Source: Tubiluchus corallicola (lineage: Eukaryota; Animalia; Priapulida). From it: a stretch of 47,750 nt of DNA. The position numbers and the translations under genes are program-made. Position 1 is the first letter of the stretch; each line of letters begins with the position of its first letter. The notes beneath the pieces were generated by a model. That model was not told the DNA's origin, searched no databases, and saw only the letters and a program-made list of their open reading frames with translations. The stretch covers positions 1 to 47,750 of the forward strand of contig JAQGDQ010001315.1 in the NCBI GenBank assembly GCA_030141605.1. The letters run 5' to 3'. Below are positions 12,099 to 47,750 of the stretch, piece by piece.

Positions 12099-14185
12099 TT
12101 GAAAACACAGGAGCAATTACATATCTGTAAAATGAGTAAATGAAATATAAACTGTAGTGACAACTTTGTTTTATTAAAATAATTACATACTGTGAATGTA
12201 GGGCATATTGACTTTCATGCACTGACTTTAGTATTTCCATTATTCTAGTATTAACTACTTCAGGACCATAGGCATTTGCTGCATTTTGCATAGGTTCATT
12301 ACGATGGATTTTCATGCAAAATTATACATGAAATGCACTTTCTTGCCTAAACAAATTGAAAATCGACTTTTGAGGAAAAAATTGGTAAAAAGCTTTCAGT
12401 TACTGCAATGTGCAGTATCACTTTGTTGGAAATCGGGTAATGCAGAAAATTTCACTTATCCGGAAACAGAACACTCTGATACACTTCGGCCTCAAGTCTA
12501 CTCTACGTTTAAGGAGAAATTTCTGATAAAAGATAAAATTTTGTCTTTAGCTAATCGGTTGGTTTTTCAGCTTGAACTCTGTACAGCTGATAGTTCTCTA
12601 GGGCTGTAGTAAGCAGGCGATCAACAAAACAGTGTGTTCAATCGATCATGCAAGTGTACACCAGCCTAAATAGCTACTGAATAGGTAACTTTGAGTGCTT
12701 GAAAAGGGTGCATTTTCTTAATTGTATCACTTGTTTTTCTTAATTTTATCCAATTAAATCACTTATAAATGTTTAAACAAATAGCATGATTGGATAGCCG
12801 AGCTTCTCTTGAATAGCACAGTACCAAATTTGTAATCATTAAGTTATTTTCGTGCTCGCACAGTAGCAGAAAAGTCATAGGTCTTACAAGACCTATTCTG
12901 AATGGTGTGATCCTGCTTTAGTTTTGAACGGGTTATTTTTTATTTTTGTTTAGCTCCGATAAACTAATATTAATGAAGATATGTCTTGAGTATACAAGTC
13001 AAAGTCTTATTTTTGGTACTTTGATTAATCTCCCACATGTTTTGGTTTTTTGGCTACAAATTTGGTTGTTACCAATAGCTTATTTTAAACCTCAACTGTG
13101 CTAACACGATCATGCACTGTGTGTTTGTATTGTTCTTCTTGTTGTATGGTCATATGTCTAATTATGAGTGCTAGAATATTCATTCATGTTGTTCTGAATA
13201 ATTAGCAATTCTTTTAACAGCAGGTATCTATCAGGCGAAACAATCACAAATCAGTTTGCAAATGACACCTCATCATAAGAGCAATTTATCAGACCTTCCT
13301 CCTAATATCTTTGTTGAGCTAAATAAAAAAGCTTAACTCCTGGTTTTTTCCGGAATCAACACCTAACCACCTGAATTTTGTATTTTGCAGAATAAAAATA
13401 ATTTATTTGTTTGCCTTGCAAACAAATACAAAAAACTATAATTATAGCAATATTCAACAATATTTAAAGAAGAACAGGAGGGTAAAAGACCAAAATGGTT
13501 ATATGGTCTGCCATCCCTAAGGGGACCATCCTTAAGAAGAAGGCAGTTTTCCACAAGGCAGTTTAACTAATGGTCCCTCGTAATTTTTTAACTATACCCT
13601 ATGCTTAGTCTATATACTAATGCACACTATTCCTAATAATTATTAAATAAAATCCTCACTTAAAATTACACACTAATCATAAATGAACAAATTATCATCA
13701 TCATCATTATCATCATCATAATTTGCCATGCCTATTAGGATATACAGAATTCTAAAATGAAAGAAATTTGCAATACATGTAACCGCAGCAGTTAATCCAA
13801 CAAATTCAACTAGATACTATTATGCCAGTGGCTTATCAGCACCACATCCGAGCGATTACCGAAATATTACTTCAATTCTTCATTTCTGTAGTCACATATC
13901 CTCTGACATGATTCTTGCAATCACTTTAAGCAATGTCTAATGGTGTGTTGATAAGATCTTTTTGAATGAAATTAATGTAAGTCAGCAACTGTCTTTCTTG
14001 CGGTTTCTTTTCCTACTTCAGTGTTTCCTTGAAAACTAATTATATCAACCTGTCGTCTGGTAGTCGTATAACAAGACACGTCCTTCCTAATTTTGTCTTT
14101 TACCAGATTGGCGTCTATTTCTTATTGCGTTATTTTTTCTTCTATTTAAATATTTACATGAGCTACACACATCAACATCATAGCG

Positions 14186-16907: not shown

Positions 16908-18692
16908 TTATTTGTGAGTCTTCAGGTGACGCTTTAAACCAGTAGATCGGACAAAAGCCGCACTGCACAGATCACACTTAAATGGCTTTGATCCAGTGTG
17001 AACTAGTAAATGTTGCTTCAAATGGCTTAAGCAAGTATATCCAGCATCACACTTCGTACACTTAATGAGTTCACCAGTGTGAAGTCGCAGATGACGTTTC
17101 AAATGATTAGATCTAGAAAAAGCCATATTACACTGAATACATTTAAATGGCTTTTCTCCTGTATGAATTACAAGATGGCGTCTCAGGTCAGCTGCTCGAT
17201 AACAGGCGAATTTACATTGAGTACAGTTAAATGACTTTTCTCCCGTGTGAGTTTTTAAATGATGTTTAAATGAACCTGAAAATGTAAAAGCTGCACCACA
17301 CTGAAAACATTTGAAAGGCTTCTCTCCTGTATGAATTCTAAGGTGCCTCTTCAAATGACCTGAATTAGCAAAAGCAGCAGCGCAGTAACTACACATGAAA
17401 GGTTTTTCTCCTGTGTGAGTTCTTAGATGTACTGCTAATGACCCTGACTGTGTGAAAGTTGCTTCACACCTGTCACATTTATAAGGCTTTTCTCCAGTGT
17501 GAATTCTTACATGTCGTTCCAAACGGCTTAAATAAGTAAAGGATGCACCACACTGGTCACACTTTAGAGATTTTTCTTTATGACTTTTTTGATGTTTCCT
17601 CAAATAGCCTGGCTGACTAAACTCCGCATCACACTGACCGCATTTAAAGGATTTCTCAGCTGTGTGAGTACTTCGGTGACACTTCAAATCATATAAACGA
17701 GTGAAAGCAGAATCACAGTGGTTACATCTGAATAGTTTTTCTCCAGTATGAGCTTTTATGTGTCGCTTCAGATTACATGACCATGTAAAAGCAGCATCAC
17801 ACAAACTGCACTTAAATGGCTTTTCAGCCGTGTGGATTCTTAGGTGTGCCTTCAGGGTAGCCTGTTGAGTAAAAGAGCCATCACATTGGTTACATTTAAA
17901 AGGCTTCTCCCCTGTGTGAGTTCTCAAATGACGCTTCAAATGGCTAGACCTGGCAAAGGCAGTACCACATTCACTGCACTTAAATGGTTTTTCTTGTGTG
18001 TGAGTTGATAAGTGTTGTTTCAAAACACTCGCATATGTAAAAGCAGAATCGCATTGACTGCATTTAAATGGTTTCTCTCCTGTATGAATTCTCAAATGTC
18101 GTTTCAAGTCACTTGACCAACTAAAAGCAGCTTCACAATGGTCACACTTAAAAAGCTTTTCCCCAGTGTGGTAGCTTGTGTGGCGCTTCAAAGAGCCAGG
18201 GTGAGAGAACTGAGCATGGCACCACTCACACTCGAAACATTTTTCAGCTGTACAAGTTTTTAGACTTTGACTTAAATTGTCACCGCCGTTTCCGGCCGAA
18301 GCATCGGGCTGTGTCAAAGGCTTAGTCTTGGCGCCTGTAACTTTATCACAGTCAGTGGAAATATTGCAATCATTTTCGATAGACAGAAAGGCAGCTTGAA
18401 TACCATGATACATTGCTTCGTCATTCCTAGTGTTTTCTATGTTAGCCAATGAAACACTGAGTTCACTTTTCATAGGTATAAAATTAACTTGGGAATCCAG
18501 ATCACATGATTTGCCGCTTTTGAAATCTTCAACATCATCTTCTGAATCACAAGGTTGAGATTTTACTCGTGCAAAATCAGTTTTTGTGTCCTGGACTTTT
18601 GACTTATCATTATCACAATCTTCGTCGTTGTTCGTCACATGATTAGGTTCAGTTTTAACAATTGCAGGATCTGATAGCTTGGCCTGTTCCAT
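16908..18692 (-). CDS. Tandem C2H2 zinc-finger protein (16 fingers, ~594 aa), single coding exon
   Basis: Sixteen C2H2 fingers with TGEKP-type linkers. Acceptor gtttgttttacag ends at 18717; first ATG (MEQAK) at 18692. The frame is open to the acceptor, so an upstream coding exon is possible. Confidence 0.93.
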   Translation of the reverse strand: MEQAKLSDPAIVKTEPNHVTNNDEDCDNDKSKVQDTKTDFARVKSQPCDSEDDVEDFKSGKSCDLDSQVNFIPMKSELSVSLANIENTRNDEAMYHGIQAAFLSIENDCNISTDCDKVTGAKTKPLTQPDASAGNGGDNLSQSLKTCTAEKCFECEWCHAQFSHPGSLKRHTSYHTGEKLFKCDHCEAAFSWSSDLKRHLRIHTGEKPFKCSQCDSAFTYASVLKQHLSTHTQEKPFKCSECGTAFARSSHLKRHLRTHTGEKPFKCNQCDGSFTQQATLKAHLRIHTAEKPFKCSLCDAAFTWSCNLKRHIKAHTGEKLFRCNHCDSAFTRLYDLKCHRSTHTAEKSFKCGQCDAEFSQPGYLRKHQKSHKEKSLKCDQCGASFTYLSRLERHVRIHTGEKPYKCDRCEATFTQSGSLAVHLRTHTGEKPFMCSYCAAAFANSGHLKRHLRIHTGEKPFKCFQCGAAFTFSGSFKHHLKTHTGEKSFNCTQCKFACYRAADLRRHLVIHTGEKPFKCIQCNMAFSRSNHLKRHLRLHTGELIKCTKCDAGYTCLSHLKQHLLVHTGSKPFKCDLCSAAFVRSTGLKRHLKTHK

Positions 18693-19685
18693 CTTTGCCA
18701 CCAAGATGTGTGAAATCTGTAAAACAAACTAATAATGATCACTGATTCTCTTGCAAAAAGATGTCACGAACTTAAATTTCGTTTTCAGTTGATTCTGTTT
18801 TCCAACAATGGATGTATGTTAAGAATAAAAGCAATTGATGTAATGTGGTCTTACAAGTAGACAGCAGCCTCATGGTACTTTAAGAATAGGGGTGTAGCCG
18901 TTTCTAAAGCTCGGGGGAGCAAGTGCAAAAAAGGCATGAAGACACATGAAGCAATTATTTTTTAATTTTCTATACCACAACAGACAGTATCTGTGTGAGA
19001 AGAAGATATAATAGTAATTAGATGTGGAACAATTTGATAGTTGGTTCAATTAAACAACCTTGACAAATGAGTAGCATAAATGCATGGCCATTTTAGAAAT
19101 ACGGAGGCAGGTTGGTTGAATGAAGTAACAATTCAATTCTTCCAAGACCGAGGCGAATAATAAAGGGTTCACTTTTATCGCACAAATAAGCTAAAGAGTA
19201 AAAAAAATTGTTAAAAGTTGCCATTTTTGAAAAATGTGCTCAAGGGAGGGACTGTTCTCTTTGCTATCCTAACTAAAAAGGTTAACTGGCGTAGAAAAAT
19301 TGTATGATAACAACGATGACATATTTGCTGTGTAACAAATATGTAACCTGCCAAAGTTTCAGTTTTCTTAACAAATAAAATGATGCCAGCCACTGTAGCC
19401 ACATGACTACTTAAGTGTAACTTATGACTAAAAAACTTACTTTTCACATTTTTTAACAATATTCTTAAATAGTGAATTTTAATTAAGTTCTTATTTACCG
19501 TTCTATGGTACTTTTATGTACTAAAATAAATGTGATATAAAGTGGATAAAAATAATAGCTTTTAGTGATTCTGACGTTCATATCGTCTTATTTCATTAAG
19601 TCAGTAATTTCTCCGACGATTCTAGATCAAAGTTTAAATGATTCTTGGGCCAGTCTCTGCTCCTTCCTGGTCAGTACATGCATAA

Positions 19686-24188: not shown

Positions 24189-25382
24189 TTAGATGTTGTG
24201 TTTCGCGTCCCAGTGGAGAATTTGTTTGTGAAAATGTTGTCTGTAGTAAGTGTGGTATTCAGTTTGGTCCAATTCCAATTTGACGCATGCATCTTGCGCC
24301 AAATCTGCTGGTGACGTCTTGGATAAGGTTTTCGTTGAACTATTAAATTGCCAAATCCAAGGTTTTGCAGATCCGAGAACTTCGCTTCAATTTAATGGGA
24401 CGTGAGCCTTCTGAGAGTTGGATGCCCGTACTACTTTATTACGCGAGCTTTAATTCTAGCACCTGGAAACACAAGTATTAGTCGTAAGATTTCCACATTA
24501 CTAGGTGCATCGACAGTTTTCGTAGCTAAGACCTGGCTTCTTTTCTCATCTATTAACTCAAAGAAAACTGATGATACAGTTTGTGCGTATGTTATTAGGT
24601 GTTCCGCTTGTTTGACAAAACATTCTGTGACAATCCTGTCGACGTCTGCGTCTTCTTTAAATATTGCATCATGCAATATCTTGTTCAAGACAGCTACTCG
24701 AATGATGAGTTCAGTGCTTTTAAGATCTTTCAGTTTTTCCCCTGCTTTCAACTCTTTGTTGTATTCAGTGTGGCTTTCTCTTATCAATTTATTTAACCGC
24801 TGATTTATCATCAAACTCCTAAGTGATACCTTCAGCTTGGTGATGTCGAAATAGAGCGTCCTCAACGAACTTCTCTTCTCTGTAGTTTTTCTCTTCAAAT
24901 TTTTTGGCCGCTTGTTCTGACTCTTCTGGCATCGGCAATACCGCCAAAGGATTAAGAAAATGAATCCGTCAATAAAACCGTCACCTCGGCAGGTTGTTTG
25001 GAGACGTTCGCAGTACAAATCTGTTTGTATAGCCCCAGCTATTGAGATGTTGCATGAGATCAGCGATATTCGCTTGCCAACTGGAGACGGACTGGTTCAC
25101 TGCTCTAAGCGCTAGCAAACAACTGCACCTCCCCAGAACCATCTCATTGCTCTCTAAGGTACATCCATACTTCGTCGCTACTAATAAGCACGTTTCAATG
25201 TTCGTTCTTTGGCTACTTGCTTCAGTAGTCCCTCTTTGGTACCACTTTTGAACAATATGTTTACCTCTCAGGTTTTCTTTGTATGAGCCAGCGGCTTTGT
25301 AATCACTGTACTCTCAGCTCTCGTTTTCCCGCATGATGGTGGCCCAGCATCGATAATGAAAACAGAAAGTAGTTGGGTTTGT
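24189..25382 (-). pseudogene. Decayed DUF3987/YfjI-like P-loop ATPase gene
   Basis: Across stops and frameshifts: Walker A VFIIDAGPPSCGKT (25322-25345), GTKEGL, Walker B VLISSDE (DE at 25171-25176), ISIAGAIQTD, GDGFIDGFIF, KSTELIIRVA and C-terminal FSDLQNLGFG. Preceded by the acceptor-like ttttttgtttcag. Confidence 0.7.
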
Positions 25383-25406: not shown

Positions 25407-25580
25407 TGTTAGCAAAGAGAATCATTGCTTTGTTAGTTAGCAGTAAATCAGATAGCCAGACATGGGCCAAACATTCAAATCTACGTTAAGTAGTGTTAGC
25501 AAAGAGAATCATTGCTTTGTTAGTTAGCAGTAAATCAGATAGCCAGACATGGGCCAAACATTCAAATCTACGTTAAGTAG
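25407..25580 (+). repeat. Perfect 87-bp tandem duplication at the 5' end of the ORF1 fragment
   Basis: TGTTAGCAAAGAGAATC...CTACGTTAAGTAG at 25407 and 25494. Confidence 0.92.
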
Positions 25581-26277
25581 CAAAGTCTCGAAAATTGACC
25601 AGGAATTGGATGCCATATCAAAATCACAGGAAGTTATTTCAGACATGTTTGATGGTTTTAAATCTGAGCTTGATGCAGCCAATCAAGACATTGCCAGACT
25701 TAAAACAGAAAACAACTCGCTTAAAGCAACAGTTAGCAAGCTACAAAAACAGGCACAGACAAATGCAATTGAGATCGACAAACTTGATCAGTACAGTCGT
25801 CGAGACTGCCTTGAAATATCAGGAATTCCGGTAATTGAACATGAAAATACAAATGCAATAGTTCTTAGTGTTGCCCGCAATATGGGAACTGCATTATCAC
25901 CAGAAGAAATTAGTATCTCCCACAGGCTCCCTAAGCCAAGAAAGGGTTACCCTAAAATTATTGCGAAATTTACCCAACGTGACAAACATGATGCAATGTT
26001 CAGAGAGAGAAAGAAAGCAGGGAACACATCGACCTTGGATTATTCTCGCTATACAGACAGTAAAATCTACATTAGTGAATCACTGACACAGAGACGACGT
26101 GAACTCTTTCGGATAGCGCTCAACTACAAAAAGCAACACAACTTTGCACACATTTGGACTGTCAACGGCAGGATTTTTCTGCGAGCCCATGATAATAGCC
26201 AGAAACTTACGATAGATTGTGTGTTAATGACCGTATGGTACACGAAAACACGTGGAAATGAAAGAATTGCAGGTTAG
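25549..26277 (+). mobile_element. LINE ORF1p fragment (CR1/L2/Crack type; coiled coil, RRM and FP25K-like C-terminal domain), with no ORF2 following
   Basis: Coiled coil, then LDQYSRRDCLEISGIP, ISISHRL, PKIIAKF, IYISESLT..RRELF, IWTVNGRIFLR. The last ~20 codons look unrelated. Confidence 0.85.
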
Positions 26278-31631: not shown

Positions 31632-31669
<38 letters not shown>

Positions 31670-31716
31670 CGAGGGAGAGAAAAAGAGGGAGAGAGAGAGA
31701 GAGAAAGAGAGAGAGA
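31421..31716. repeat. Degenerate (GA)n purine-rich microsatellite
   Basis: GA repeat with GAAA and GGGA interruptions. Confidence 0.95.
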
Positions 31717-33010
31717 TCGTATCGAAGACTGATACATACATGTCTCACATTACTGTACACGAAGATTTAGTGAAAACACTATTAAATAACGTCAATACGA
31801 GCAAATCTGTAGGTCCTGATGGAATAAGCAACAAAGTACTTAAGCTTTGTGCAGATTCATTATCAAGCCCATTAACCCGATTGTTTAACTTCTCATTACA
31901 GTCAGGTCATTTTCCTAGCTTGTTGCAAATGTCTGCCCCATACACAAAGGGGGAGATAGACAGCTTGTTTCGAACTACAGACCCGTGGCGCTACTTTCAT
32001 GTATGTCCAAGATTCTAGAACGCGTTGTCTTTAATCAGATGTATAACTACTTTGCTATTGATAATAACTTTTTGACGGAAAAGAACTCGGGGTTCAAATC
32101 AAACGATAGCACCATCAACCAGCTAGTTTCAATCGTTCACAATTTGTATACAAGTTTAGACGACGGTGCTGAAATCTGTAGCGTTTTTCTGGACATCAGT
32201 AAAGCTTTTGATAAGGTGTGGCATGTAGGCTTGATATTCAAATGAAAGCAGTATGGAGTAGGTGGCCAAGTTCTGTCTTGGCTATCATCTTACCTTCGAA
32301 ACCGAACACAAAGAGTAACGAACACAAAGGCAGATCTCAGAATAATTGAAAACTAGGCCAAACGTTGGATGGTTAAATTTAATCCTAATAAGACCGAAGT
32401 CATGCTTTTCTCCCGTAAATCCAATGCTCCTCAATATCCTACTCTGTATTTATCTAATACTCCACTGAAAACTGTAAATGTTCACAAACATTTAGGTATT
32501 GATCTTACATCTGACCTGAACTGGAACTATCACGTCTCAAAAATGGTAGACAAAGCAAATCTAAAGCTAAACAACTTTCGACGTGTGTCAGTTAATAGTT
32601 AATCCCAGAGCTACGCGGGAACGATTATTCATTACGGCTATTCTCCCTGCCATCGAATATGGTAACGTAGTATGGTCAGGATGCAGTGAATACAGTATAC
32701 GTTTGTTAGAAAATATTCAGCTAACTGCTGCTAGAATCTGTTCTGGCGCTATGTTTCGATCTTCCCCTGCAAGTATCTTGTCTGACAGCGGCTTCACTAA
32801 ATTAGTGACACGCTTTCATTATCATCGCCTATGTCTTTTTTACAAAATAATCAATGACTTAGTGCCCCACTATTTAAGTGCAATTCTGCCGCCAAAGGTT
32901 AACGAAGTTACCCCCTATTATATACGCAGTGGTACTAAATACAGAAATTTTAATTGCCGTTCTGTTAGCTGTGAAAAATCGTTTTTCATATCGACCATTA
33001 ACATTCTCGT
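31717..33010 (+). mobile_element. Degenerate CR1/L2-type LINE ORF2 with frameshifts and an internal deletion
   Basis: KSVGPDGI, NYRPVALLS, FLDISKAFDKVWH, VKFNPNKTE, HKHLGI, LENIQL.AARI. The PQGS/ADD core appears deleted near 32330. Confidence 0.85.
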
Positions 33011-35250
33011 GTGATTATTCTGATCATGATTTTATAATAATAGTAGACAAAACAAAACCAACCAAAAACAATACAGGCACAGTCTGGAAAACAGTCAGAG
33101 ATTATTCTACATATAATAAAGATATATTTCAAGATACTTTAACCAAATTGGACTGGAGTAATATTTACACAATGACTGACATTGACATGCAAATAAACAC
33201 ATTAATAAATAATATGGAATACTGCCTGGATATCTATGCACCGTATAAAAAAATTAAAATACATCAGCAGCAATTTAATGCAAAATCTGCCTGCCCTTGG
33301 GCGGATACAGAATTCGCAAAACTAAGACACAATAAAAATGAATTATATAGAACATATTTACATTTAAAAGGTAAAATCAATTACAATAATTACAAAAAGG
33401 CACGAAATAAATTTAATAGCTACAACAGGAAACTCAAAAATAAATATTATATTAATAAATGCAATGATGCAACTACACCTAAACAAAAATGGCATTTAAT
33501 TAATGACGTACTTAACAGATACAGAAACGATCAATTACAAATAAATAGTTTACGAGAAAATGACAGTATAATATCTGATCCAGTTGACATTGCTAACAAA
33601 TTAAATTCCACATTTATCAATCTTGGAAAATTTGACAACTTGCCACACCAACATAATGCAAATATACACAATATATACAAAAACCAATCAGTAATACAAT
33701 CCACTTTCTCATTTACTAGCGTCACAGAATACGACATCTTTAGAATATTAAACAGTTTAAATATAAATAAAGGAAGTGGACCCTCAGACATGCCAATAAA
33801 GATCTTAAAAGACTGTGCCAGCATCATTACTCCTCATCTAACATATATCACAAACCAAGTCTTAATGCGCTCAGAATTTCCAGCAGTGTGTAAACAAGCA
33901 AACATAACTCCAATATACAAGAAAGATGCTAAAGATGATGCTAAAAACTACAGACCAATCTCAGTAGTGCACGTACTAGCCAAAGTATTTGAAAGAGTTA
34001 TCTACAACCAAATAAACCATTACATTGAAAATAATAAGTTACTGTCAAATCATCAATTTGGTTTTAGAAAACTACATTCTACAATAGACGCGATAATTGA
34101 TGCCACTGAAAAGTGGCGTTACAACTTAAATAAAAATAAATATATAACAGCAGCATTTTTAGATCTAAGTAAAGCTTTTGACAGCCTCGATCACAATTTA
34201 CTACTAGACAACTTACGCCAACTAGGATTCGATTATACTTCTCTCAAACTAATTAATAATTACCTACACAATAGAAAACAAAGAGTCAAACTGAACAAAC
34301 ACACTTTTTCAGCATGGGACACACCACAGAGAGGCATCCCACAAGGTACGATATTAGGTCCATTACTCTTTTGTTTATACGTTAATAAAATTCATTTAGT
34401 TTTACATAATTCAGACTTAACACAATATGCCGATGATACAACACTCTATACAGCACACGCAGACTTTCTAACATCAAAAAATAATCTAGAAAAAGACATA
34501 ACAAATATAAATGCAGCATTTAACTATTTTGGTTTAAAAATGAATGATGATAAGACAGAATTTATGGTAATATCACCCAAATCCAATGACATTACTTCTA
34601 ATGCAACACTAAAAGTAGGTGACTGTTCCATAGAACAAGCAAAAACTGTAAAATTTTTAGGCATTACTGTCGACAATAAACTCACTTGGGATGAACAGTT
34701 TCATCAAATACACAACAAGATGGCATTAAGCACGACATTCTTACGCCAAACCAGAGGCCATCTAACCAAGAAAACAAAAATTCTCATCTACAAAAGTCTA
34801 ATATTACCACATTATCTATATGGTTGCACTTTACTTCAAAACGTTAAATATGAAAACTTTAGAAAACTAAATACAATGCAAAACTACGCACTTAGATTAA
34901 TTCATGGCTACTCTAACAAAACTGCTAAACAACATGCTGCTTCTGCAACAAGCTTAAGAACGTCCACAAAAATACCAATATTAGAAGCCTATCGAGATTA
35001 CAAAACACTGATATTTCTTTATAAATATATAAATAAACTGAGCATTCCATTTATAAACAATCCCTTAGCATTTATTCCTGATACCACATTGAACACTAGA
35101 ACATACAATTTAAAGCAAATTACAGTAAACAATAAATTTGGAAATAACTCTATATATCAAAACAGGCCATACATTTATGGAACTTACTACCCAGTGAAAT
35201 AAAACAAATAGAATCTCTCCACCACTTTAAAAAGAAATTAAAAGAATATC
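33011..35250 (+). mobile_element. Young 5'-truncated L2/Crack/Daphne-type LINE ORF2 (endonuclease C-terminus plus near-intact RT)
   Basis: DYSDHDFI (end of APE domain), NYRPIS, NHQFGFRK, FLDLSKAFDSLDH, GIPQGTILGPLLF, QYADDTT, KFLGI. A frameshift near 35160 continues as LWNLLP.EIK...FKKKLKEY. Confidence 0.92.
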
Positions 35251-35295: not shown

Positions 35296-35900
35296 ACACC
35301 ACACCATACCACTGCAGCACACCACACCACCCACACCATACGACTCCACCACATCACACCACACTGCACCACACCATACCACTGCACCACACCGCACCAC
35401 CCACACACCACACCACACCATACCACTCCACCAGACTGCACCACACAATACCACTGCACCACCCACACACCACACCACCCACACCATAATACTCCACCAC
35501 ATCACACCGCACAGCACCACACCATAACACCACACTGCACCACACCACCCACCCCATACCACTCCACCACATCACACCACACCATACCACTGCAGCACAC
35601 CGCACCACCCACACACACACCACCCACACCATGCGACTCCACCACATCACACCACACTGCACCACACCATACCACTGCACCACACCGCACCACCCACACA
35701 CCACACCACCCACACCATAATACTCCACCACATCACACCGCACTGCACCACACCATAACACCACACTGCACCACAACACCCACCCACACACCACGCCACC
35801 CACTCCATACCACACTACCCACACCACAACCCACACACCCTATCACCCCACCACACCATCCATAGCACAACACACAAAGCACACCACCACCACACCACAT
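35296..35900. repeat. Complex (CACCA)n microsatellite block 1
   Basis: CACCA-based, with recurring ACCATACCACTCCACCACATCACACC and CACTGCACC variants. Confidence 0.95.
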
Positions 35901-36865
35901 CAAATCCACCACCTCACGTGGTGATCATGATGTTGATGATGATGATGATGATGGTGGTGGCAACGATGACGACACCTATAGCACAAGCACCAACAGCACA
36001 GCATTACAACAAAACCATTCCAAACATTTTTCACAAAGTTGAAACTATGTGCTATAATATAATAAATAGCAAAGGCCCCGCAAAAGATTTTGCGTAAAAA
36101 ACCACGTATAATCAATAATACGCGAACATCCTACCTAGTCCACATTTATAACGCAAAGCCCGTAACATCATGCCTACTGTTTGTTTAACTAACGCAAACC
36201 CGTAGCAGGCAGCTTTTTGCTGAATTAAAGTTATAAGATTACAGCAGAGTACAATGGATGACGTCACAACAATGCCTTTGCGTCAACAGTTTTCTAAGCG
36301 AAAATTGCCGAAAATAGAACATCTAATTAACTCGCCAATACTCCTCTCGGTGGACTTGCCCTAAAATATAACCCACACCATCGTGTAGCCCTGTCCTTCC
36401 TCTTTGTAAAGAGCCCCATATCTCCTTCCTAGAGTGCCACCGGGAGACGCTAGAACGTTTTTTCCAAAGGCTATTTAGTCAAAATTTCGAAAAAAATCGC
36501 GAGTTGGGTCCGGGAAAACGCCCGTTACGGGACGCCGTGGCCCTCTCGCGAATTCTAAATAGGCCTATGACACCCATCGCTGAACCCGTTCCCGTTCTCT
36601 ACATCTCAGCCGTATAACTTTTGCAAAAAAACAGCCGAAAAATGGCCATTTTTGGAGGTTTTTTGCCGCCCGTTCCTCCCGGTGGGCCCGATTCGAAAAA
36701 TAAACCATCAATGAGATGACACTAGATCGAGACCTTTCGTTTGATATATAGATCGCCGCAAATGGTGCCCTCGTCTGGGCTGTAGCCTCGAATCTTATAT
36801 ATATACCAAGAATATTAATATAATAGACTAGCCAAACCCCACAAAAAGAATTTTGTGCACAAATC

Positions 36866-37692
36866 AACACACAACCCACACCACACCACTCCACCTCATC
36901 ACACCACACTGCACCACACCATACCACTCCACCTCATTGCACCACACAATACCACCACACCGCACCACACCATACCACCTACACACCACACCACCCACAC
37001 CATACCACTCCACCACATCACACCACACTGCACCACACCATACCACTGCACCACCCACACACCACACCACACCACCGACACCATAATACTCCACCACATC
37101 ACACCGCACAGCACCACACCATAACACCACACTGCACCACACCACCCACCCACCTACACACCACACCATACCACTCCACCACATCACACCGCACCGCACC
37201 ATACCACTGCAGCACACCGCACCACCCACACACCACACCACACCACCCACACCATACGACTCCACCACATCACACCACACCGCACCACACCGTACCACTG
37301 CACCACACCACACCGCACCACCCACGCACCACACCACACCACCCACACCATAATACTCCGCACTGGACCACACCATAACACCACACTGCACCACACCACA
37401 CCACCCACACCATACCACTCCACCACATCACACCGCACCACACCATACCACTCCACCTCATCGCACTACACTGCACCACACAATGCCACCACACCGCACC
37501 ACCCACACACCACACCACACCACCCACACCACCCACACCATAATACTCCACCACATCACACCGCACTGCACCACAACAGCCACCCACACACCACGCCACC
37601 CACTCCATACCACACTACTCACACCACACCCTATTACCCCACCACACCATCCATAGCACAACACACAAAGCACAGCACCACCACACCACATC
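36866..37692. repeat. Complex (CACCA)n microsatellite block 2
   Basis: Same motifs as block 1, longer. Confidence 0.95.
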
Positions 37693-38989
37693 AAATCCAC
37701 CACCTCACGTGGTGATCATGTTGATGATGATGATGATGGTGGCAACGATGACGACACCTATAGCACAAGCACCAACAGCACAGCATTACAACAAAACCAT
37801 TCCAAACATTTTTCACAAAGTTGAAACTATGTGCTATAATATAATAAATAGCAAAGGCCCCGCAAAAGATTTTGCGTAAAAAACCACGTATAATCAATAA
37901 CACGCGAACATTCTACCTAGTCCTCATTTTTAATACAAAGCCCGTGCAGCTTTTACTGAATTACAGCAGCGTAGCAGCTTTTTGCTGAATTAAAGCTATA
38001 AGATTATAGACAGAATACAATGGATGACGTCAGAACAATGGTTTTGCGTGAGCAGTTTTCTAAGTGAAAATTGCGAAAAATAGAACCTCTAATTAACTCG
38101 TCGGTGCTCCTCTTGGTGGACCTGCCCTAACATATAGCCCACATCATCGTGTAGCCCTGTCCTTCCTCTTTGTAAAAAGCTATATATCTCCTTCCGAGAA
38201 TCCCACCAGGCGCCGCTAGAACGTTTTTTCCGCAGGCCGTTTGGTCAAAATTTCGAAAAAATCGCGAGTTGGGTCCGGGAAAACGCCCGTTGCGGGGCGC
38301 CCTGGCCCTCTCGCGAATTCTAAATATGCCTACTACACCCACCGCTGAACGGGCTATCTATCCATACCCAGCACCCCCCTCGGCCTGTTCCCGTTCTCTA
38401 CATCTCAGCCGTATAACTTTTGCAAAAAACGGCCGAAAAAGGGCCATTTTTGGAGGTTTTTCGCCTCCCGTTCCTCCCGGTGGGCCCGATTCGAAAAATA
38501 AACCATCAATGAGAAGACACTAGATCGAGACCTTTCGTTTGATATATAGATCGCCGCAAATGGTGCCGTCGTCGAAGCTGTAGCCTCAAATCTTATATAT
38601 ATATAAAGCCCATACCAAGAATATTAATATAAGAGTATAGATATAGATATATATTAAGATACCAAGAATATTAGTATAAGAGATATTAATATTGAAAAGT
38701 CAGAAGAATTCTGTTTTAATTTGGTTAATTTAATTTAATGATAATACTAATAATAGTAATATAAATTGCAAATCAGAATTTTCTTTCGGATAAATTTTGT
38801 GGCCCTGAAAAGGGCCGGTTGGTTATATTTAAGGGCCTGTAGCACCGTTCTTCCTCTTTCTGATGAGCCATATATCTCCTTCCGAGAGTCCCACCAGGCG
38901 CCGCTAGAACATTTTTCCGCAGGCTGTTTGGTCAAAATTTCGAAAAAATGTTCGTAAGCAGTGGTGGTTCTCGATGATTCATATGAAGT

Positions 38990-39597
38990 TCAGTTGAAGA
39001 AATTGTACACGCAGTTGGATCCACGTCGTCTGTTTTGAATAGGATGTATATTTTGCTGTTGTGGTAATTGTTGCTGTTGTTGTAATAGTTGTTGCTGTTG
39101 TTGTAATTGTTGTTGTTACTGTTGTTGTATGCGTGAAATGCTTTCAAGTTGTGTTTGCACATGTGCCATGAAATGTCCAAGAATTTGTTGTTGTTGTTGT
39201 TGATGTTCCTGTTCCTGTCCTTGTTCCTGTCCTTGTTCTTGTCCTTGTTCCTGTCCTTGTTCCTGTCCTTGTTCCTGTCCTTGTTCCTTGTCAATTGGAT
39301 TCAACTGCAATTTTTCCATTTTCTGTAACATAGACATATTTTGTTAAAAAAACAAAGATTTTTCAAACAATATGGAAAATTATTCTTCATTTCATTTTAT
39401 GCATAACATAACATGTATGAAACCAAACATGTTATTCAGAAAACTTTAGACTTAAATAGTTTTAGATATTTTGATAATAAATGCTAATGTAAATTAATAT
39501 AAGAGAAATTTATTACCTTCGAAATACTGTTTTTTCCTCCGAAGACAAGACAAAGATAAAGAATGCCAAAAAATAATAATGTCAATGTGAAACGCAT
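38990..39597 (-). pseudogene. Secreted polyQ gene copy A1 (exons 39597-39517 and 39322-38990) with a premature stop
   Basis: Same structure as A2, but CAA>TAA at 39116-39118, an expanded (GQEQ)n tract, and an in-frame 33-nt shorter NRRR region. Confidence 0.7.
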
Positions 39598-40181
39598 CTT
39601 GTGATTGTTTATTAGACTTGTGAAGCAAAAATTGCCAAAAATAGAACATCTAATTAACATTTACAGTCTGTGCGTTAGGTAAGTGCTGAAAGTTTGGCGG
39701 CTACAGATTTTTATAGCTCGCCAGGGATTAAAGACGAGTGAATTGTTACATTGCGGACGTTAGAGTACACGTCTTAATTGTTCTTGTTACGCGGAAGTTA
39801 GAGTATTTTTTTTTGAAATTTTGACCGAAATTGAACGATATTATTTGATTGAATATTAACCACTAAACGGTTAAAACTGAGTTTTATTTGACATATGCAA
39901 TGTGTATATTATTGTTATGAAGGAAACAAAAATAAAAAATATTGTGTTTGAATTAATGTTTAAAATTAAATTTTAATAATTAGGAGACAGTTGAATTTGC
40001 AAAATCAGAATTTTTGTTCGGATAAATTTTGTGGCCCTGAAAAGGACCGGTTGGTTATTTTATGCAGATCTCTATGCAGAAGTGGTGTATTTCCTGTTGG
40101 TTATTTTATGCAGATCTCTATGCAGAAGTGGTGTATTTCGTCGTGGTGCTCTCACTGACAGCGTACTGGTGTTTGGATTCC

Positions 40182-40394
40182 TCATTGTGAGTTATAGAAA
40201 TTGTAAATTATACAATTGTTCCCTCTGGTTGGGCGCCGTCTTTGTGGAAAGTATGGCCGTTGTCTGTATTGTCTGTTTCTGCGATTTATTTTTTGCTGTT
40301 GTTGTAATTGTTGCCGTTGCTGTTGCTGTATGTGTAAAATTCGTTCAAGTTGTGTTTGCACGTGTGCCATGAATTGTCCAAGAATTTGTTGTTG
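40182..40394 (-). pseudogene. Diverged paralog B1 of the polyQ gene, probably a pseudogene
   Basis: QQQILGQFMAHVQTQLERILHIQQ...YRQRPY...GNNCIIYNFYNSQ*. Two in-frame TAA codons lie upstream and no signal exon was found. Confidence 0.6.
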
Positions 40395-41133
40395 GTGTTA
40401 TTGTTGTTAATTATTATCATTTTTCGCAGTTACTATTTTCTTGTTTTTCGCGCCAAATCAAAGCCGTACTGCATTTTGGCTATATATAACTTGTGTATGA
40501 GTTCTCAGCTTACAGTATATAGAGGCAAATAATGGCCAATACGTTCAAAACGATATTATTTGATTGAATATTAACCACTAAACGGTTAAAACTAAGTTTT
40601 ATTTGACATATGCAATGTGTATATTATTGTTATGAAGGAAAGAAAAATAAAAAATATTGTTTGAATTTTAAATTTTAATAATTAGGGGAGAGTTGTTCAA
40701 TGGCACGACACTAGATCGAGACCTTTCGTTTGATGTATAGATCGCCGCAAATGGTGCCCTCGTCGGGGCTGTAGCCTCGAATCTTATATATAAATATATA
40801 TATTAAGATACCAGCGAAATTAATATAAGAGATATTAATATTGAAAAGTCAGAAGAATTCTGTTTTAATTTTGTTTTTTAAATTTAATTTAAATTAATTT
40901 AATAAATTGCAAATCAGAATTTTCTTTCGGATAAATTTTGTGGCCCTGAAAAGGGCCGGTTGGTTATATTTAAGGGCATGTAGCCCCGTTCTTCCTCTTT
41001 CTGATGAGCCATATATCTCCTTCCGAGAGTCCCACCAGGCACCGCTAGAAGGTTTTTTCCGCAGGCTGTTTGGTCAAAATTTCGAAAAAATGTTCGGAAG
41101 CAGAAGTGGTTCCATCATATCATCATGATATCA

Positions 41134-41737
41134 TCAGTTGAAGAAATTGTACACGCAGTTGGATCCGCGTCGTCTGTTGTTGTATGGGCGTTGTCTATAT
41201 CGTCGTCTGTTTTGTCTGGGATGTATATTTTGCTGTTGTGGTAATTGTTGCTGTTGTTGTAATAGTTGTTGCTGTTGTTGTAATTGTTGTTGTTGCTGTT
41301 GTTGTATGCGTGAAATGCGTTCAAGTTGTGTTTGCATATGTGCCATGAATTGTCCAAGAATTTGTTGTTGGTGTTGTTGTTGTTGATGTTGTTCCTGTTC
41401 CTGTCCTTGTTCGTGTCCTTGTTGCTGTTCAATTGGATTCAACTGCAATTTTTCCATTTTCTGTAACATAGACACATTTTTGTTAAAAAAACAAAGATTT
41501 TTCAAACAATATGGAAAAATTATTCTTCATTTCATTTTATGCATAACATAACATGTATGAAACCAAACATGTTATTCAGAAAACTTTAGACTTAAATAGT
41601 TTTAGATATTTTGATAATAAATGCTAATGTAAATTAATATAAGAGAAATTTATTACCTTCGAAATACTGTTTTTTCCTCCGAAGACAAGACAAAGATAAA
41701 GAATGCCAAAAAATAATAATGTCAATGTGAAACGCAT
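41134..41737 (-). CDS. Putative secreted polyQ/Arg-rich protein, copy A2 (135 aa; exons 41737-41657 and 41460-41134)
   Basis: Exon 1 MRFTLTLLFFGILYLCLVFGGKNSISK is signal-peptide-like. AAG|gtaata donor, 196-nt intron, tatgttacag acceptor, phase-0 join to KMEKLQLNPIEQQQ...NRRRGSNCVYNFFN*. Confidence 0.72.
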
Positions 41738-41821
41738 CTTGTGATTGTTTATTAGACTTGTGAAGCAAAAATTGCCAAAAATAGAACATCTAATTAACAT
41801 CTACAGTCTGTGCGTTAGGTA

Positions 41822-41855
41822 AGTGCTGAAAGTTTGGCGGCTACAGATTTTTATA
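41822..41855 (-). promoter_or_regulatory. TATA box plus Inr-like element upstream of gene A (TATA also at 39708-39715, 43987-43994, 46126-46133)
   Basis: Minus strand TATAAAAATCTGTAGCCGCCAAACTTTCAGCAC. The TATA begins 28 nt before the A of TCAGC (41827). Confidence 0.55.
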
Positions 41856-42321
41856 GCTCGCCAGGGATTAAAGACGAGTGAATTGTTACATTGCGGACGT
41901 TAGAGTACACGTCTTAATTGTTCTTGTTACGCGGAAGTTAGAGTATTTTTTTTTGAAATTTTGACCGAAATTGAACGATATTATTTGATTGAATATTAAC
42001 CACTAAACGGTTAAAACTGAGTTTTATTTGACATATGCAATGTGTATATTATTGTTATGAAGGAAACAAAAATAAAAAATATTGTGTTTGAATTAATGTT
42101 TAAAATTAAATTTTAATAATTAGGAGACAGTTGAATTTGCAAAATCAGAATTTTTGTTCGGATAAATTTTGTGGCCCTGAAAAGGACCGGTTGGTTATTT
42201 TATGCAGATCTCTATGCAGAAGTGGTGTATTTCCTGTTGGTTATTTTATGCAGATCTCTATGCAGAAGTGGTGTATTTCGTCGTGGTGCTCTCACTGACA
42301 GCGTACTGGTGTTTGGATTCC

Positions 42322-42534
42322 TCATTGTGAGTTATAGAAATTGTAAATTATACAATTGTTCCCTCTGGTTGGGCGCCGTCTTTGTGGAAAGTATGGCCGT
42401 TGTCTGTATTGTCTGTTTCTGCGATTTATTTTTTGCTGTTGTTGTAATTGTTGCCGTTGCTGTTGCTGTATGTGTAAAATTCGTTCAAGTTGTGTTTGCA
42501 CGTGTGCCATGAATTGTCCAAGAATTTGTTGTTG
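42322..42534 (-). pseudogene. Paralog B2
   Basis: Same as B1. Confidence 0.6.
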
Positions 42535-43273
42535 GTGTTATTGTTGTTAATTATTATCATTTTTCGCAGTTACTATTTTCTTGTTTTTCGCACCAAATCA
42601 AAGCCGTACTGCATTTTGGCTATATATAACTTGTGTATGAGTTCTCAGCTTACAGTATATAGAGGCAAATAATGGCCAATACGTTCAAAACGATATTATT
42701 TGATTGAATATTAACCACTAAACGGTTAAAACTAAGTTTTATTTGACATATGCAATGTGTATATTATTGTTATGAAGGAAAGAAAAATAAAAAATATTGT
42801 TTGAATTTTAAATTTTAATAATTAGGGGAGAGTTGTTCAATGGCACGACACTAGATCGAGACCTTTCGTTTGATGTATAGATCGCCGCAAATGGTGCCCT
42901 CGTCGGGGCTGTAGCCTCGAATCTTATATATAAATATATATATTAAGATACCAGCGAAATTAATATAAGAGATATTAATATTGAAAAGTCAGAAGAATTC
43001 TGTTTTAATTTTGTTTTTTAAATTTAATTTAAATTAATTTAATAAATTGCAAATCAGAATTTTCTTTCGGATAAATTTTGTGGCCCTGAAAAGGGCCGGT
43101 TGGTTATATTTAAGGGCATGTAGCCCCGTTCTTCCTCTTTCTGATGAGCCATATATCTCCTTCCGAGAGTCCCACCAGGCACCGCTAGAAGGTTTTTTCC
43201 GCAGGCTGTTTGGTCAAAATTTCGAAAAAATGTTCGGAAGCAGAAGTGGTTCCATCATATCATCATGATATCA

Positions 43274-43876
43274 TCAGTTGAAGAAATTGTACACGCAGTT
43301 GGATCCGCGTCGTCTGTTGTTGTATGGGCGTTGTCTATATCGTCGTCTGTTTTGTCTGGGATGTATATTTTGCTGTTGTGGTAATTGTTGCTGTTGTTGT
43401 AATAGTTGTTGCTGTTGTTGTAATTGTTGTTGTTGCTGTTGTTGTATGCGTGAAATGCGTTCAAGTTGTGTTTGCATATGTGCCATGAATTGTCCAAGAA
43501 TTTGTTGTTGGTGTTGTTGTTGTTGATGTTGTTCCTGTTCCTGTCCTTGTTCGTGTCCTTGTTGCTGTTCAATTGGATTCAACTGCAATTTTTCCATTTT
43601 CTGTAACATAGACACATTTTTGTTAAAAAAATAAAGATTTTTCAAACAATATGGAAAATTATTCTTCATTTCATTTTATGCATAACATAACATGTATGAA
43701 ACCAAACATGTTATTCAGAAAACTTTAGACTTAAATAGTTTTAGATATTTTGATAATAAATGCTAATGTAAATTAATATAAGAGAAATTTATTACCTTCG
43801 AAATACTGTTTTTTCCTCCGAAGACAAGACAAAGATAAAGAATGCCAAAAAATAATAATGTCAATGTGAAACGCAT
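43274..43876 (-). CDS. Putative secreted polyQ/Arg-rich protein, copy A3 (135 aa; exons 43876-43796 and 43600-43274)
   Basis: Same exons, splice sites and open frame as A2. Confidence 0.72.
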
Positions 43877-44454
43877 CTTGTGATTGTTTATTATACTTGT
43901 GAAGCAAAAATTGCCAAAAATAGAACATCTAATTAACATCTACAGTCTGTGCGTTAGGTAAGTGCTGAAAGTTTGGCGGCTACAGATTTTTATAGCTCGC
44001 CAGGGATTAAAGACGAGTGAATTGTTACATTGCGGACGTTAGCGTCTTAATTGTTCTTGTTACGCGGAAGTTAGAGTATTTTCTTTTGAAATTTTGACCG
44101 AAATTGAACGATATTATTTGATTGAATATTAACCACTAAACGGTTAAAACTGAGTTTTATTTGACATATGCAATGTGTATATTATTGTTATGAAGGAAAC
44201 AAAAATAAAAAATATTGTGTTTGAATTAATGTTTAAAATTAAATTTTAATAATTAGGAGACAGTTGAATTTGCAAAATCAGAATTTTCTTTCGGATAAAT
44301 TTTGTGGCCCTGAAAAGGGCCGGTTGGTTATTTTATGCAGATCTCTATGCAGAAGTGGTGTATTTCCGGTTGGTTATTTTATGCAGATCTCTATGCAGAA
44401 GTGGTGTATTTCGTCGTGGTGCTCTCACTGACAGCGTACTGGTGTTTGGATTCC

Positions 44455-44667
44455 TCATTGTGAGTTATAGAAATTGTAAATTATACAATTGTTCCCTCTG
44501 GTTGGGCGCCGTCTTTGTGGAAAGTATGGCCGTTGTCTGTATTGTCTGTTTCTGCGATTTATTTTTTGCTGTTGTTGTAATTGTTGCCGTTGCTGTTGCT
44601 GTATGTGTAAAATTCGTTCAAGTTGTGTTTGCACGTGTGCCATGAATTGTCCAAGAATTTGTTGTTG
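44455..44667 (-). pseudogene. Paralog B3
   Basis: Same as B1. Confidence 0.6.
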
Positions 44668-45400
44668 GTGTTATTGTTGTTAATTATTATCATTTTTCGC
44701 AGTTACTATTTTCTTGTTTTTCGCACCAAATCAAAGCCGTACTGCATTTTGGCTATATATAACTTGTGTATGAGTTCTCAGCTTACAGTATATAGAGGCA
44801 AATAATGGCCAATACGTTCAAAACGATATTATTTGATTGAATATTAACCACTAAACGGTTAAAGTTTTATTTGACATATGCAATGTGTATATTATTGTTA
44901 TGAAGGAAAGAAAAATAAAAAATATTGTTTGAATTTTAAATTTTAATAATTAGGGAGAGTTGTTCAATGGCACGACACTAGATCGAGACCTTTCGTTTGA
45001 TGTATAGATCGCCGCAAATGGTGCCCTCGTCGGGGCTGTAGCCTCGAATCTTATATATAAATATATATATTAAGATACCAGCGAAATTAATATAAGAGAT
45101 ATTAATATTGAAAAGTCAGAAGAATTCTGTTTTAATTTTGTTTTTTAAATTTAATTTAATTTAATTTAATAAATTGCAAATCAGAATTTTCTTTCGGATA
45201 AATTTTGTGGCCCTGAAAAGGGCCGGTTGGTTATATTTAAGGGCATGTAGCCCCGTTCTTCCTCTTTCTGATGAGCCATATATCTCCTTCCGAGAGTCCC
45301 ACCAGGCACCGCTAGAAGGTTTTTTCCGCAGGCTGTTTGGTCAAAATTTCGAAAAAATGTTCGGAAGCAGAAGTGGTTCCATCATATCATCATGATATCA

Positions 45401-46015
45401 TCAGTTGAAGAAATTGTACACGCAGTTGGATCCGCGTCGTCTGTTGTTGTATGGGCGTTGTATATATCGTCGTCTGTTTTGTCTGGGATGTATATTTTGC
45501 TGTTGTGGTAATTGTTGCTGTTGTTGTAATAGTTGTTGCTGTTGTTGTAATTGTTGTTGTTGCTGTTGTTGTATGCGTGAAATGCGTTCAAGTTGTGTTT
45601 GCATATGTGCCATGAATTGTCCAAGAATTTGTTGTTGGTGTTGTTGTTGTTGATGTTGTTCCTGTTCCTGTCCTTGTTCCTGTCCTTGTTCGTGTCCTTG
45701 TTGCTGTTCAATTGGATTCAACTGCAATTTTTCCATTTTCTGTAACATAGACACATTTTTGTTAAAAAAATAAAGATTTTTCAAACAATATGGAAAATTA
45801 TTCTTCATTTCATTTTATGCATAACATAACATGTATGAAACCAAACATGTTATTCAGAAAACTTTAGACTTAAATAGTTTTAGATATTTTGATAATAAAT
45901 GCTAATGTAAATTAATATAAGAGAAATTTATTACCTTCGAAATACTGTTTTTTCCTCCGAAGACAAGACAAAGATAAAGAATGCCAAAAAATAATAATGT
46001 CAATGTGAAACGCAT
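45401..46015 (-). CDS. Putative secreted polyQ/Arg-rich protein, copy A4 (139 aa; exons 46015-45935 and 45739-45401)
   Basis: Same structure, with an in-frame 12-nt insertion (extra GQEQ) and an R>I change (RYIQRPY). Confidence 0.72.
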
Positions 46016-46553
46016 CTTGTGATTGTTTATTATACTTGTGAAGCAAAAATTGCCAAAAATAGAACATCTAATTAACATCTACAGTCTGTGCGTTAGGTAA
46101 GTGCTGAAAGTTTGGCGGCTACAGATTTTTATAGCTCGCCAGGGATTAAAGACGAGTGAATTGTTACATTGCGGACGTTAGAGTACACGTCTTAATTGTT
46201 CTTGTTACGCGGAAGTTAGAGTATTTTCTTTTGAAATTTTGACCGAAATTGAACGATATTATTTGATTGAATATTAACCACTAAACGGTTAAAACTGAGT
46301 TTTATTTGACATATGCAATGTGTATATTATTGTTATGAAGGAAACAAAAATAAAAAATATTGTGTTTGAATTAATGTTTAAAATTAAATTTTAATAATTA
46401 GGAGACAGTTGAATTTGCAAAATCAGAATTTTCTTTCGGATAAATTTTGTGGCCCTGAAAAGGGCCGGTTGGTTATTTTATGCAGATCTCTATGCAGAAG
46501 TGGTGTATTTCGTCGTGGTGCTCTCACTGACAGCGTACTGGTGTTTGGATTCC

Positions 46554-46765
46554 TCATTGTGAGTTATAGAAATTGTAAATTATACAATTGTTCCCTCTGG
46601 TTGGGCGCCGTCTTTGTGGAAAGTATGGCCGTTGTCTGTATTGTCTGTTTCTGCGATTTATATTTTGCTGTTGTTGTAATTGTTGCCGTTGCTGTTGCTG
46701 TATGTGTAAATTCGTTCAAGTTGTGTTTGCACGTGTGCCATGAATTGTCCAAGAATTTGTTGTTG
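46554..46765 (-). pseudogene. Paralog B4 with an additional 1-nt frameshift
   Basis: gtgtaaattcg here versus gtgtaaaattcg in B1-B3 (near 46708). Confidence 0.6.
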
Positions 46766-47497
46766 GTGTGTTGTTAATTATTATCATTTTTCGCAGTTAC
46801 TATTTTCTTGTTTTTCACCAAATCAAAGCCGTACTGCATTTTGGCTATATATAACTTTTGTATGAGTTCTCAGCTTACAGTATATAGAGGCAAATAATGG
46901 CCAATACGTTCAAAACGATATTATTTGATTGAATATTAACCACTAAACGGTTAAAACTAAGTTTTATTTGACATATGCAATGTGTATATTATTGTTATGA
47001 AGGAAAGAAAAATAAAAAATATTGTTTGAATTTTAAATTTTAATAATTAGGGGAGAGTTGTTCAATGGCACGACACTAGATCGAGACCTTTCGTCTGATG
47101 TATAGATCGCTGCAAATGGTTCCCTCGTCGGAGCTGTAGCCTCGAATCTTATATATAAATAATATATATTAAGATACCAGCGAAATTAATATAAAGATAT
47201 TAATATTGAAAAGTCAGAAGAATTCTGTTTTAATTTTGTTTTTTAAATTTAATTTAAATTAATTTAATAATTGCAAATCAGAATTTTCTTTCGGATAAAT
47301 TTTGTGGCCCTGAAAAGGGCCGGTTGGTTATATTTAAGGGCATGTAGCCCCGTTCTTCCTCTTTCTGATGAGCCATATATCTCCTTCCGAGAGTCCCACC
47401 AGGCACCGCTAGAAGGTTTTTTCCGCAGGCTGTTTGGTCAAAATTTCGAAAAAATGTTCGGAAGCAGAAGTGGTTCCATCATATCATCATGATATCA

Positions 47498-47750
47498 TCA
47501 GTTGAAGAAATTGTACACGCAGTTGGATCCGCGTCGTCTGTTGTTGTATGGGCGTTGTATATATCGTCGTCTGTTTTGTCTGGGATGTATATTTTGCTGT
47601 TGTGGTAATTGTTGCTGTTGTTGTAATAGTTGTTGCTGTTGTTGTAATTGTTGTTGTTGCTGTTGTTGTATGCGTGAAATGCGTTCAAGTTGTGTTTGCA
47701 TATGTGCCATGAATTGTCCAAGAATTTGTTGTTGGTGTTGTTGTTGTTGA
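47498..47750 (-). CDS. Copy A5, 3' part of exon 2 (cut by the window edge)
   Basis: ...ILGQFMAHMQTQLERISRIQQ...GSNCVYNFFN*, matching A4. Confidence 0.65.
   Translation of the reverse strand, partial: QQQQHQQQILGQFMAHMQTQLERISRIQQQQQQQLQQQQQLLQQQQQLPQQQNIHPRQNRRRYIQRPYNNRRRGSNCVYNFFN

Follow-up and report, generated by a model that had tools for sequence, protein, structure and literature searches.

Metazoan replication-dependent histone genes combine a 16-nucleotide (nt) hairpin of the GGCCC-TTTTC-AGGGCC type, set between A/C-rich flanks, with an AAAGA-type histone downstream element (HDE) 13-14 nt downstream, a TATA promoter and a tandem array. This RNA hairpin is generally regarded as reserved for histone messages, and our full-text literature search, which did not cover subscription journals and does not establish absence from print, returned no natural non-histone gene with a histone-type end. 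Here we describe the same combination of features at a gene that does not encode a histone. The window, by which we mean the whole 47,750-nt stretch of contig JAQGDQ010001315.1 that was analyzed, carries on its minus strand, from position 38990 to its end, a tandem array of a two-exon gene predicted to encode a Gln-rich secreted protein. Each gene-like copy is followed by a histone-type stem-loop, a spacer and an HDE, which together we call the cassette, and in the B copies described below a decayed histone H2B C-terminus can still be read in the sequence beside it.

Each unit of the array holds one full gene (A) and one 5'-truncated paralogue (B), and with five A and four B copies the window contains nine gene-like copies. 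The histone 3' untranslated region (UTR) stem-loop of Rfam (RF00032; gathering score 34) was found behind all nine, at 39.7 bits in seven and at 32.4 bits in two. The 16-nt hairpin occurs at these nine sites and nowhere else in the window, against 0.00 matches expected from 100 shuffles, and both the minimum-free-energy and the centroid structures predicted for the complete A 3' UTR contain it. Scanning metagenomes for the hairpin core yielded 11 loci, seven of them after histone genes (with the H2B-type ORFs of L001 and L008 identified by eye and not by script label), three after open reading frames (ORFs) of 99-175 amino acids (aa) without a Pfam match and one unclear; the 39.7-bit copies of the array score higher than the hairpins behind the real histone genes of these loci (28.3-37.6 bits). 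ACAAA follows the stem, and in seven of the nine copies an intact HDE, GAAAGAAAA, starts 13 nt after it. The core of the HDE, AAAGA, lies 14 nt past the stem and could pair with the UCUUU box of U7, to which it is complementary and which PMC5054213 calls universal. The stop codon lies 173-176 nt before the hairpin in A (64 nt without a repeat insert) and 87-133 nt before it in B, compared with 23-73 nt for 11 histone hairpins.

The cassette is also uniform, being identical between A and B over 57 nt and between A1 and A2 at 56 of 56 nt. The only cassette changes seen in the window fall in B1 and B2 (40011-40048 and 42151-42188), which are promoterless and share a C-to-T change in the stem, which creates a G-U pair, and an AG-to-CA change that alters the HDE to GAACAAAAA. 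Of about 10 substitutions between neighboring units, three fall in the 57-nt cassette of a promoterless B copy.

A remnant of the likely source of the cassette lies next to it in the B copies. Aligned with the H2B C-terminus at the position where it would be expected, the B UTR scores 49. The best of 894 control tiles scores 39, all of 1500 shuffles stay below 49, and the A UTRs, at 28-29, lie within the control range. A tblastn search with 11 histone ORFs from the metagenome loci matched each of the four B 3' UTRs weakly (E 0.79) and had one other weak match, unrelated, near 1050 (E 0.051). When the H2B end of locus L002, stripped of its hairpin, was used in blastn, only the four B UTRs matched (75.5% over 49 nt, E 2.6e-4); the ends of the other four H2B loci gave no match to the window at E 0.1. 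A phmmer search of the 23-aa relic reading against PDB returned 0 matches at E 10, and identification of the relic therefore rests on the alignment, tblastn and blastn tests and on contigs of run X1. Those contigs cover 29 of 30 bins of a unit, and their variation was read by eye among the matches listed; X1 is possibly the window's own source, so it shows variation within the family and not an independent occurrence. The X1 contigs include less decayed relic pieces (LLLPGEL, SKHAV and KAVTKY). In one contig, ELSKHAV follows directly on an A-type stop (41134). Some of the contigs with less decayed pieces could be true H2B genes, but the one with the A-type stop cannot.

Within the window, the relic follows the B ORF stop and is read in a different frame from the B ORF; a stop of its own ends it 23 nt ahead of the stem, a distance within the 23-73 nt of histone hairpins. 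B1-B3 contain a 46-nt tandem duplication (40050-40139, 42190-42279 and 44320-44412), absent from B4, in which the relic end and the sequence leading up to the hairpin occur a second time. The presence of a decayed H2B C-terminus in the B 3' UTR points to capture of the cassette from an H2B gene. We rejected a separate possibility, an origin of exon 2 itself from H2B, because exon 2 scores no better against five H2B sequences than shuffles do.

Some of the metagenome loci have features of their own. At L005:457-1064, L009:1266-1837 and L010:911-1269, a stem-loop above the Rfam gathering score and an AAGAG-type element follow a non-histone ORF (175, 168 and 99 aa, respectively, with no Pfam match), and the hairpins lie 39, 24 and 18 nt downstream. 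L009 has a TATA box and adjoins, on the opposite strand, an exon from a gene for a Syf1-like splicing factor, and in the histone locus L002 a 5S rRNA gene (827-949) sits between convergent H4 and H2B genes. The strict hairpin-plus-HDE pattern had 0 matches in the metagenome, and a viral hairpin scan gave seven loci, none with notable histone-like context.

The original prediction had presented the 2.1-kb 'satellite' of this region as a tandem array of two-exon genes. That reading stands, with four ATG exons starting at 46015, 43876, 41737 and 39597; it did not include the B paralogue, the stem-loop that follows each copy, the relic of H2B or the pieces of repeat within the UTRs. From 38990 to the window end, the units measure 2139-2140 nt and are 96-99.8% identical, with diagnostic indels, which argue that the array is not a simple assembly duplication. 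Its features, all on the minus strand, are listed below.

38990..47750, minus: tandem array of ~2.14-kb units, extending past the window end
47498..47750, minus: A5, represented by exon 2, which the window end truncates
47284..47321, minus: A5 stem-loop (47306-47321) and HDE (47284-47292)
46554..46768, minus: B4, truncated exon 2 paralogue with a 1-nt frameshift and no signal exon
46490..46540, minus: B4 3' UTR, decayed histone H2B C-terminus, relic stop 23 nt before the hairpin
46429..46466, minus: B4 stem-loop and HDE
45401..46133, minus: A4 gene, with TATA box 46133-46126, exon 1 coding sequence 46015-45935, intron 45934-45740 and exon 2 coding sequence 45739-45401; 139 aa
45187..45224, minus: A4 stem-loop and HDE
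44284..44670, minus: B3, with ORF remnant 44670-44455, H2B relic 44441-44391, 46-nt duplication, stem-loop 44321-44306 and HDE 44292-44284
43274..43994, minus: A3 gene, with TATA box 43994-43987, exon 1 43876-43796, intron 43795-43601 and exon 2 43600-43274; 135 aa
43060..43097, minus: A3 stem-loop and HDE
42151..42537, minus: B2, with ORF remnant 42537-42322, H2B relic 42308-42258, stem-loop with a G-U pair 42188-42173 and altered HDE
41848..41855, minus: A2 TATA box (41855-41848), with an initiator (Inr)-like A at 41827
41763..41798, minus: A2 5' UTR, 36-nt interspersed-repeat piece holding the out-of-frame upstream ATG
41657..41737, minus: A2 exon 1 of 27 codons, resembling a signal peptide, with cleavage predicted after G20
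41461..41656, minus: A2 intron, GT-AG, phase 0
41134..41460, minus: A2 exon 2, with an acidic Gln/Glu stretch, amphipathic helix, polyQ and basic Arg/Tyr tail
40979..41091, minus: A2 3' UTR, 113-nt insert of an interspersed repeat
40920..40957, minus: A2 stem-loop (40957-40942), ACAAA and HDE GAAAGAAAA (40928-40920)
40697..40792, minus: 96-nt interspersed-repeat piece downstream of the A2 cassette
40011..40397, minus: B1, with ORF remnant 40397-40182, H2B relic 40168-40118, stem-loop with a G-U pair 40048-40033 and altered HDE
38990..39715, minus: A1, with TATA box 39715-39708, exon 1 39597-39517, intron 39516-39323, exon 2 39322-38990 and premature TAA 39118-39116
38779..38816, minus: A1 stem-loop and HDE, same as in A2 despite 5.5% divergence of the 3' half

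The anatomy attributed earlier to the A genes, a TATA box, a signal exon, an intron and a Gln-rich exon on the minus strand, was confirmed. The A of the Inr-like TCAGC in A2 lies 28 nt after the start of the TATA box, as had been noted, and all four ATG exons have the expected 81 nt and end in AAG followed by GTAAT. The introns, predicted at about 195 nt, GT-AG and in phase 0, measure 195, 195, 196 and 194 nt, and each ends in TTACAG; the acceptor AG is the sole AG within the last 60 nt, and a TTAAC lies 21 nt upstream. A2-A4 are intact, as claimed, with predicted spliced products of 139 (A4), 135 (A3) and 135 aa (A2), and the length variants of exon 2 do keep the frame, coming in 12-nt steps. 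The exon 2 length of A1 is still a multiple of three, with the frame kept to the old stop apart from the premature TAA at exon 2 codon 69, which leaves a predicted product of 95 aa. The two upstream ATGs are in weak context, as had been cautioned, since both have T at -3 where the main ATG has A; the one at 41800 is in frame and would add 21 aa, and the one at 41789 is out of frame.

Exon 1 encodes 19 uncharged residues (maximum KD12 2.84) and a V18-x-G20 site, and it shows the basic n-region, the hydrophobic h-region and the small -3/-1 residues of a secretory precursor. Among 300 control open 27-codon ATG frames elsewhere in the window, four are as hydrophobic, three of these also have a basic N-terminus, and five have a GTR donor at +81; among open shuffles of exon 1, 147 of 3505 are as hydrophobic. 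The X1 contigs span the intron, with no joint across it, as DNA would. Run X2, presumed to be RNA, reached just the interspersed-repeat pieces (6 of 30 bins) and was left out of the evidence.

Differences among the copies bear on whether the coding sequence has been under constraint. Over 35 aligned codons, the A and B cores differ by four synonymous and four replacement changes, which correspond to synonymous and replacement proportions (pS and pN) of 0.22 and 0.046 (Fisher p 0.028, on small numbers) and support the view that the coding differences carry signs of purifying selection. Among the X1 matches listed and read by eye, one paralogue contig has four synonymous changes, three replacement changes and one extra in-frame codon in exon 1; its short 5' UTR lacks both upstream ATGs, and it is 6 nt shorter somewhere within 41598-41715. 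A1 joins a 5' half of recent origin to a 3' half that is older, in line with amplification by unequal crossing-over; the older half differs from that of A2 by 36 changes in 652 nt. The two-exon signal-peptide gene of the original prediction is thus upheld in its anatomy and gains signs of purifying selection, and it was incomplete in overlooking the histone-type, apparently H2B-captured 3' end.

Exon 2, which is 37% Gln, runs from an acidic start through an amphipathic stretch (hydrophobic moment 0.52) and polyQ to a basic tail, the last 28 aa of which carry a net charge of +9; KK at the exon junction and RRR runs, the type of site at which the original prediction would have a cationic peptide released, are present in the A product. 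AlphaFold predicts a single long helix at residues 18-71 and disorder elsewhere, with a pTM of 0.35. No family had been recognized for this protein, and our searches, for which exon 2 or its alignment served as the query instead of the spliced protein, agree. Exon 2 found no relative among 986 word-search candidates, no Pfam family above the cut-off (only DUF745, far below it) and no match in the Atlas search, and a hidden Markov model (HMM) search with the exon 2 alignment gave 0 matches among 1.84 billion representatives. In viral contigs, none of 46 pattern matches was confirmed. Most likely, in our view, the protein acts outside the cell as a structural or coat component, rich in Gln and with a basic tail for binding, which is the weakest step of our account, and a cationic defense-peptide precursor the next best guess.

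How such a locus could have arisen and operate can be outlined. An ancestral secreted-protein gene would have fused just past its stop to an H2B tail, which brought the last codons, stop, stem-loop and downstream element; duplication into A and B, insertion of repeat pieces, loss of the B 5' half and amplification by unequal crossing-over would have followed. Pol II would start near 41827, the transcript would be spliced once, and scanning would pass the two weak ATGs. U7 would pair with GAAAGA (U7-pairing target CCGAAAGAAAA), the RNA would be cut about 5 nt after the stem, and SLBP would then handle export, translation and decay of the mRNA. Output would follow SLBP supply, as in dividing cells, oocytes and cleavage embryos, and the protein would enter the endoplasmic reticulum (ER).

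We put at roughly even the chances that the predicted spliced mRNA ends at the hairpin by U7/SLBP cleavage and not at a poly(A) site. We would back with somewhat less conviction the fuller proposal that a spliced secreted-protein mRNA is a natural U7/SLBP client, its end derived from a still-readable H2B tail of which selection kept only the hairpin and HDE. Three observations count for use of the histone-type end: the cassette is unchanged between A and B while the adjacent H2B relic decayed in A, A1 and A2 agree at 56 of 56 nt there against 36 changes in the 652 nt of their 3' halves, and cassette changes in the window are confined to promoterless B1 and B2. An intron-containing globin gene has reportedly used a histone 3' end in experiments. 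Several points weigh against such use. Conservation of the cassette is modest (P 0.04 for A1/A2 and P 0.06 for A/B) and could be mimicked by gene conversion within the array. The A stop-to-hairpin distance of 173-176 nt is well above the 23-73 nt of the histone controls, and no CCAAT box was found in the 270 nt upstream. Promoterless B copies also carry the cassette, so its presence alone is no proof of use, and a protein for which Pfam, word, HMM and Atlas searches found no relatives offers no homology backing for any function. Furthermore, ATTAAA hexamers lie 39-73 nt after the A stem and an AATAAA 339 nt after it, which makes polyadenylation possible, and PMC3661734 states that mammalian histone genes cannot undergo stem-loop 3' processing when they contain an intron.

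In a rival account, a real secreted-protein gene fused to the H2B tail but its mRNA is polyadenylated, with the hairpin a passenger or an internal SLBP site kept alike by gene conversion. In addition to the nearby ATTAAA and conservation P values of just 0.04-0.06, this account draws on the mutual exclusion of intron and stem-loop processing in mammalian cells (PMC3661734) and on the polyadenylation of some histone mRNAs that have both stem-loop and HDE (PMC9756948). However, the H2B relic is strongly decayed in A relative to B and the hairpin, spacer and HDE are not, and the sole cassette changes seen are those of promoterless B1 and B2, and we regard polyadenylation as a serious but somewhat unlikely outcome. 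A once-functional gene that is now a dead relic, amplified as satellite DNA with its copies homogenized without expression, would fit the nonsense stop of A1, the truncation of the B copies with the added frameshift in B4, and the repeat pieces in both UTRs that bring upstream ATGs. Yet A2-A4, the three complete internal copies, all have open frames, exon 2 varies in length without loss of frame and every A cassette is intact, which leaves this explanation improbable. We find it more improbable still that an intronless, histone-style transcript starts inside the 'intron' and is translated from MEKLQ into a 107-aa intracellular basic protein, with the signal exon a chance T-rich frame. Such a transcript would match the intronless build of histone genes, the Arg-rich tail resembles those of nuclear proteins, and 4% of exon 1 shuffles are as hydrophobic; against it, the only clear TATA/Inr precedes exon 1, the splice signals agree with the reading frame, and exon 1 of the X1 paralogue contig remains open, with synonymous changes and an insertion that preserves the frame.

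If cleavage at the captured hairpin is correct, this gene would be an exception both to the restriction of such ends to histone mRNAs and to their supposed incompatibility with introns, and it would show the route by which other non-histone hairpin genes of invertebrates arise. The conjunction of a predicted intron, a signal peptide, a full end signal and a visible donor makes two questions testable on one short RNA: whether U7 processing can act on a natural spliced, ER-bound mRNA outside a histone cluster, and whether new genes can acquire cell-cycle or oocyte timing through tail capture. Messages of this kind, if they lack poly(A), would be under-sampled by standard poly(A) transcriptomes, and whole gene families could be missing from annotation. 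Even with an unused hairpin, the H2B relic would be a clean record of how such chimeras form.

The repeat pieces in the UTRs belong to an unclassified interspersed repeat, two tandem copies of which, 82% alike and with a long CACAC-type microsatellite, lie at 35297-36826 and 37031-38635. Three of its modules occur inside each A gene, in the same orientation and in reversed order, and beyond the cassette of A1 the repeat goes on without interruption. The hairpin is not part of the repeat, since it is missing where the more complete copies at 36.4 and 38.2 kb run on. A Penelope-like origin of the hairpin was not supported, as Rfam scans found no ribozyme and the repeat copies lack the hairpin; the word 'histone' has 0 occurrences in PMC8557442.

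The rest of the window, whose content marks it as animal DNA, contains two C2H2 zinc-finger array genes with long single coding exons on the minus strand (10620-12116 and 16908-18728) and a minus-strand PX-domain exon at ~1241-1420. The latter had three matches, the only named one being a gastropod protein (64% identity) with a PX plus leucine-rich-repeat layout, which we take to be nischarin-like. This match hints loosely at a lophotrochozoan without settling the group. A 221-codon open frame at 24431-25096 (minus) has no Pfam match. An ORF at 25543-26277 (plus), with a coiled coil and a Baculo_FP_2nd match, is presumably similar to ORF1 of a long interspersed nuclear element (LINE), and LINE reverse-transcriptase remnants, including a 774-codon frame, occupy 31641-35202 (plus).

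In its predicted product, the array gene resembles two classes of secreted protein. With matrix, shell, cement and egg-coat proteins (shematrins, KRMPs and Gln-rich shell proteins), it shares a signal exon, a low-complexity body, a basic Tyr/Arg tail and lineage-specific tandem expansion; it differs in having no sequence match to them, and those proteins are assumed to have poly(A)-type ends. With precursors of linear cationic antimicrobial peptides (myticalins and arminins), it shares a signal, an acidic stretch and a cationic Arg/Pro/Tyr part, whereas its long polyQ spacer, single Cys, lack of a homology match and lack of a clear KR site directly before the basic tail set it apart. With an H2B gene, it shares a 3' UTR, that of B, homologous to the H2B C-terminus. 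Unlike histone genes, however, it has a product with no Pfam histone match, a predicted intron of 194-196 nt, a signal exon and a stop 173-176 nt before the hairpin. Taken together, the intron, the signal exon and the visible H2B donor distinguish this locus as a non-histone gene with a histone-gene-like 3' end that may work like that of a histone gene.

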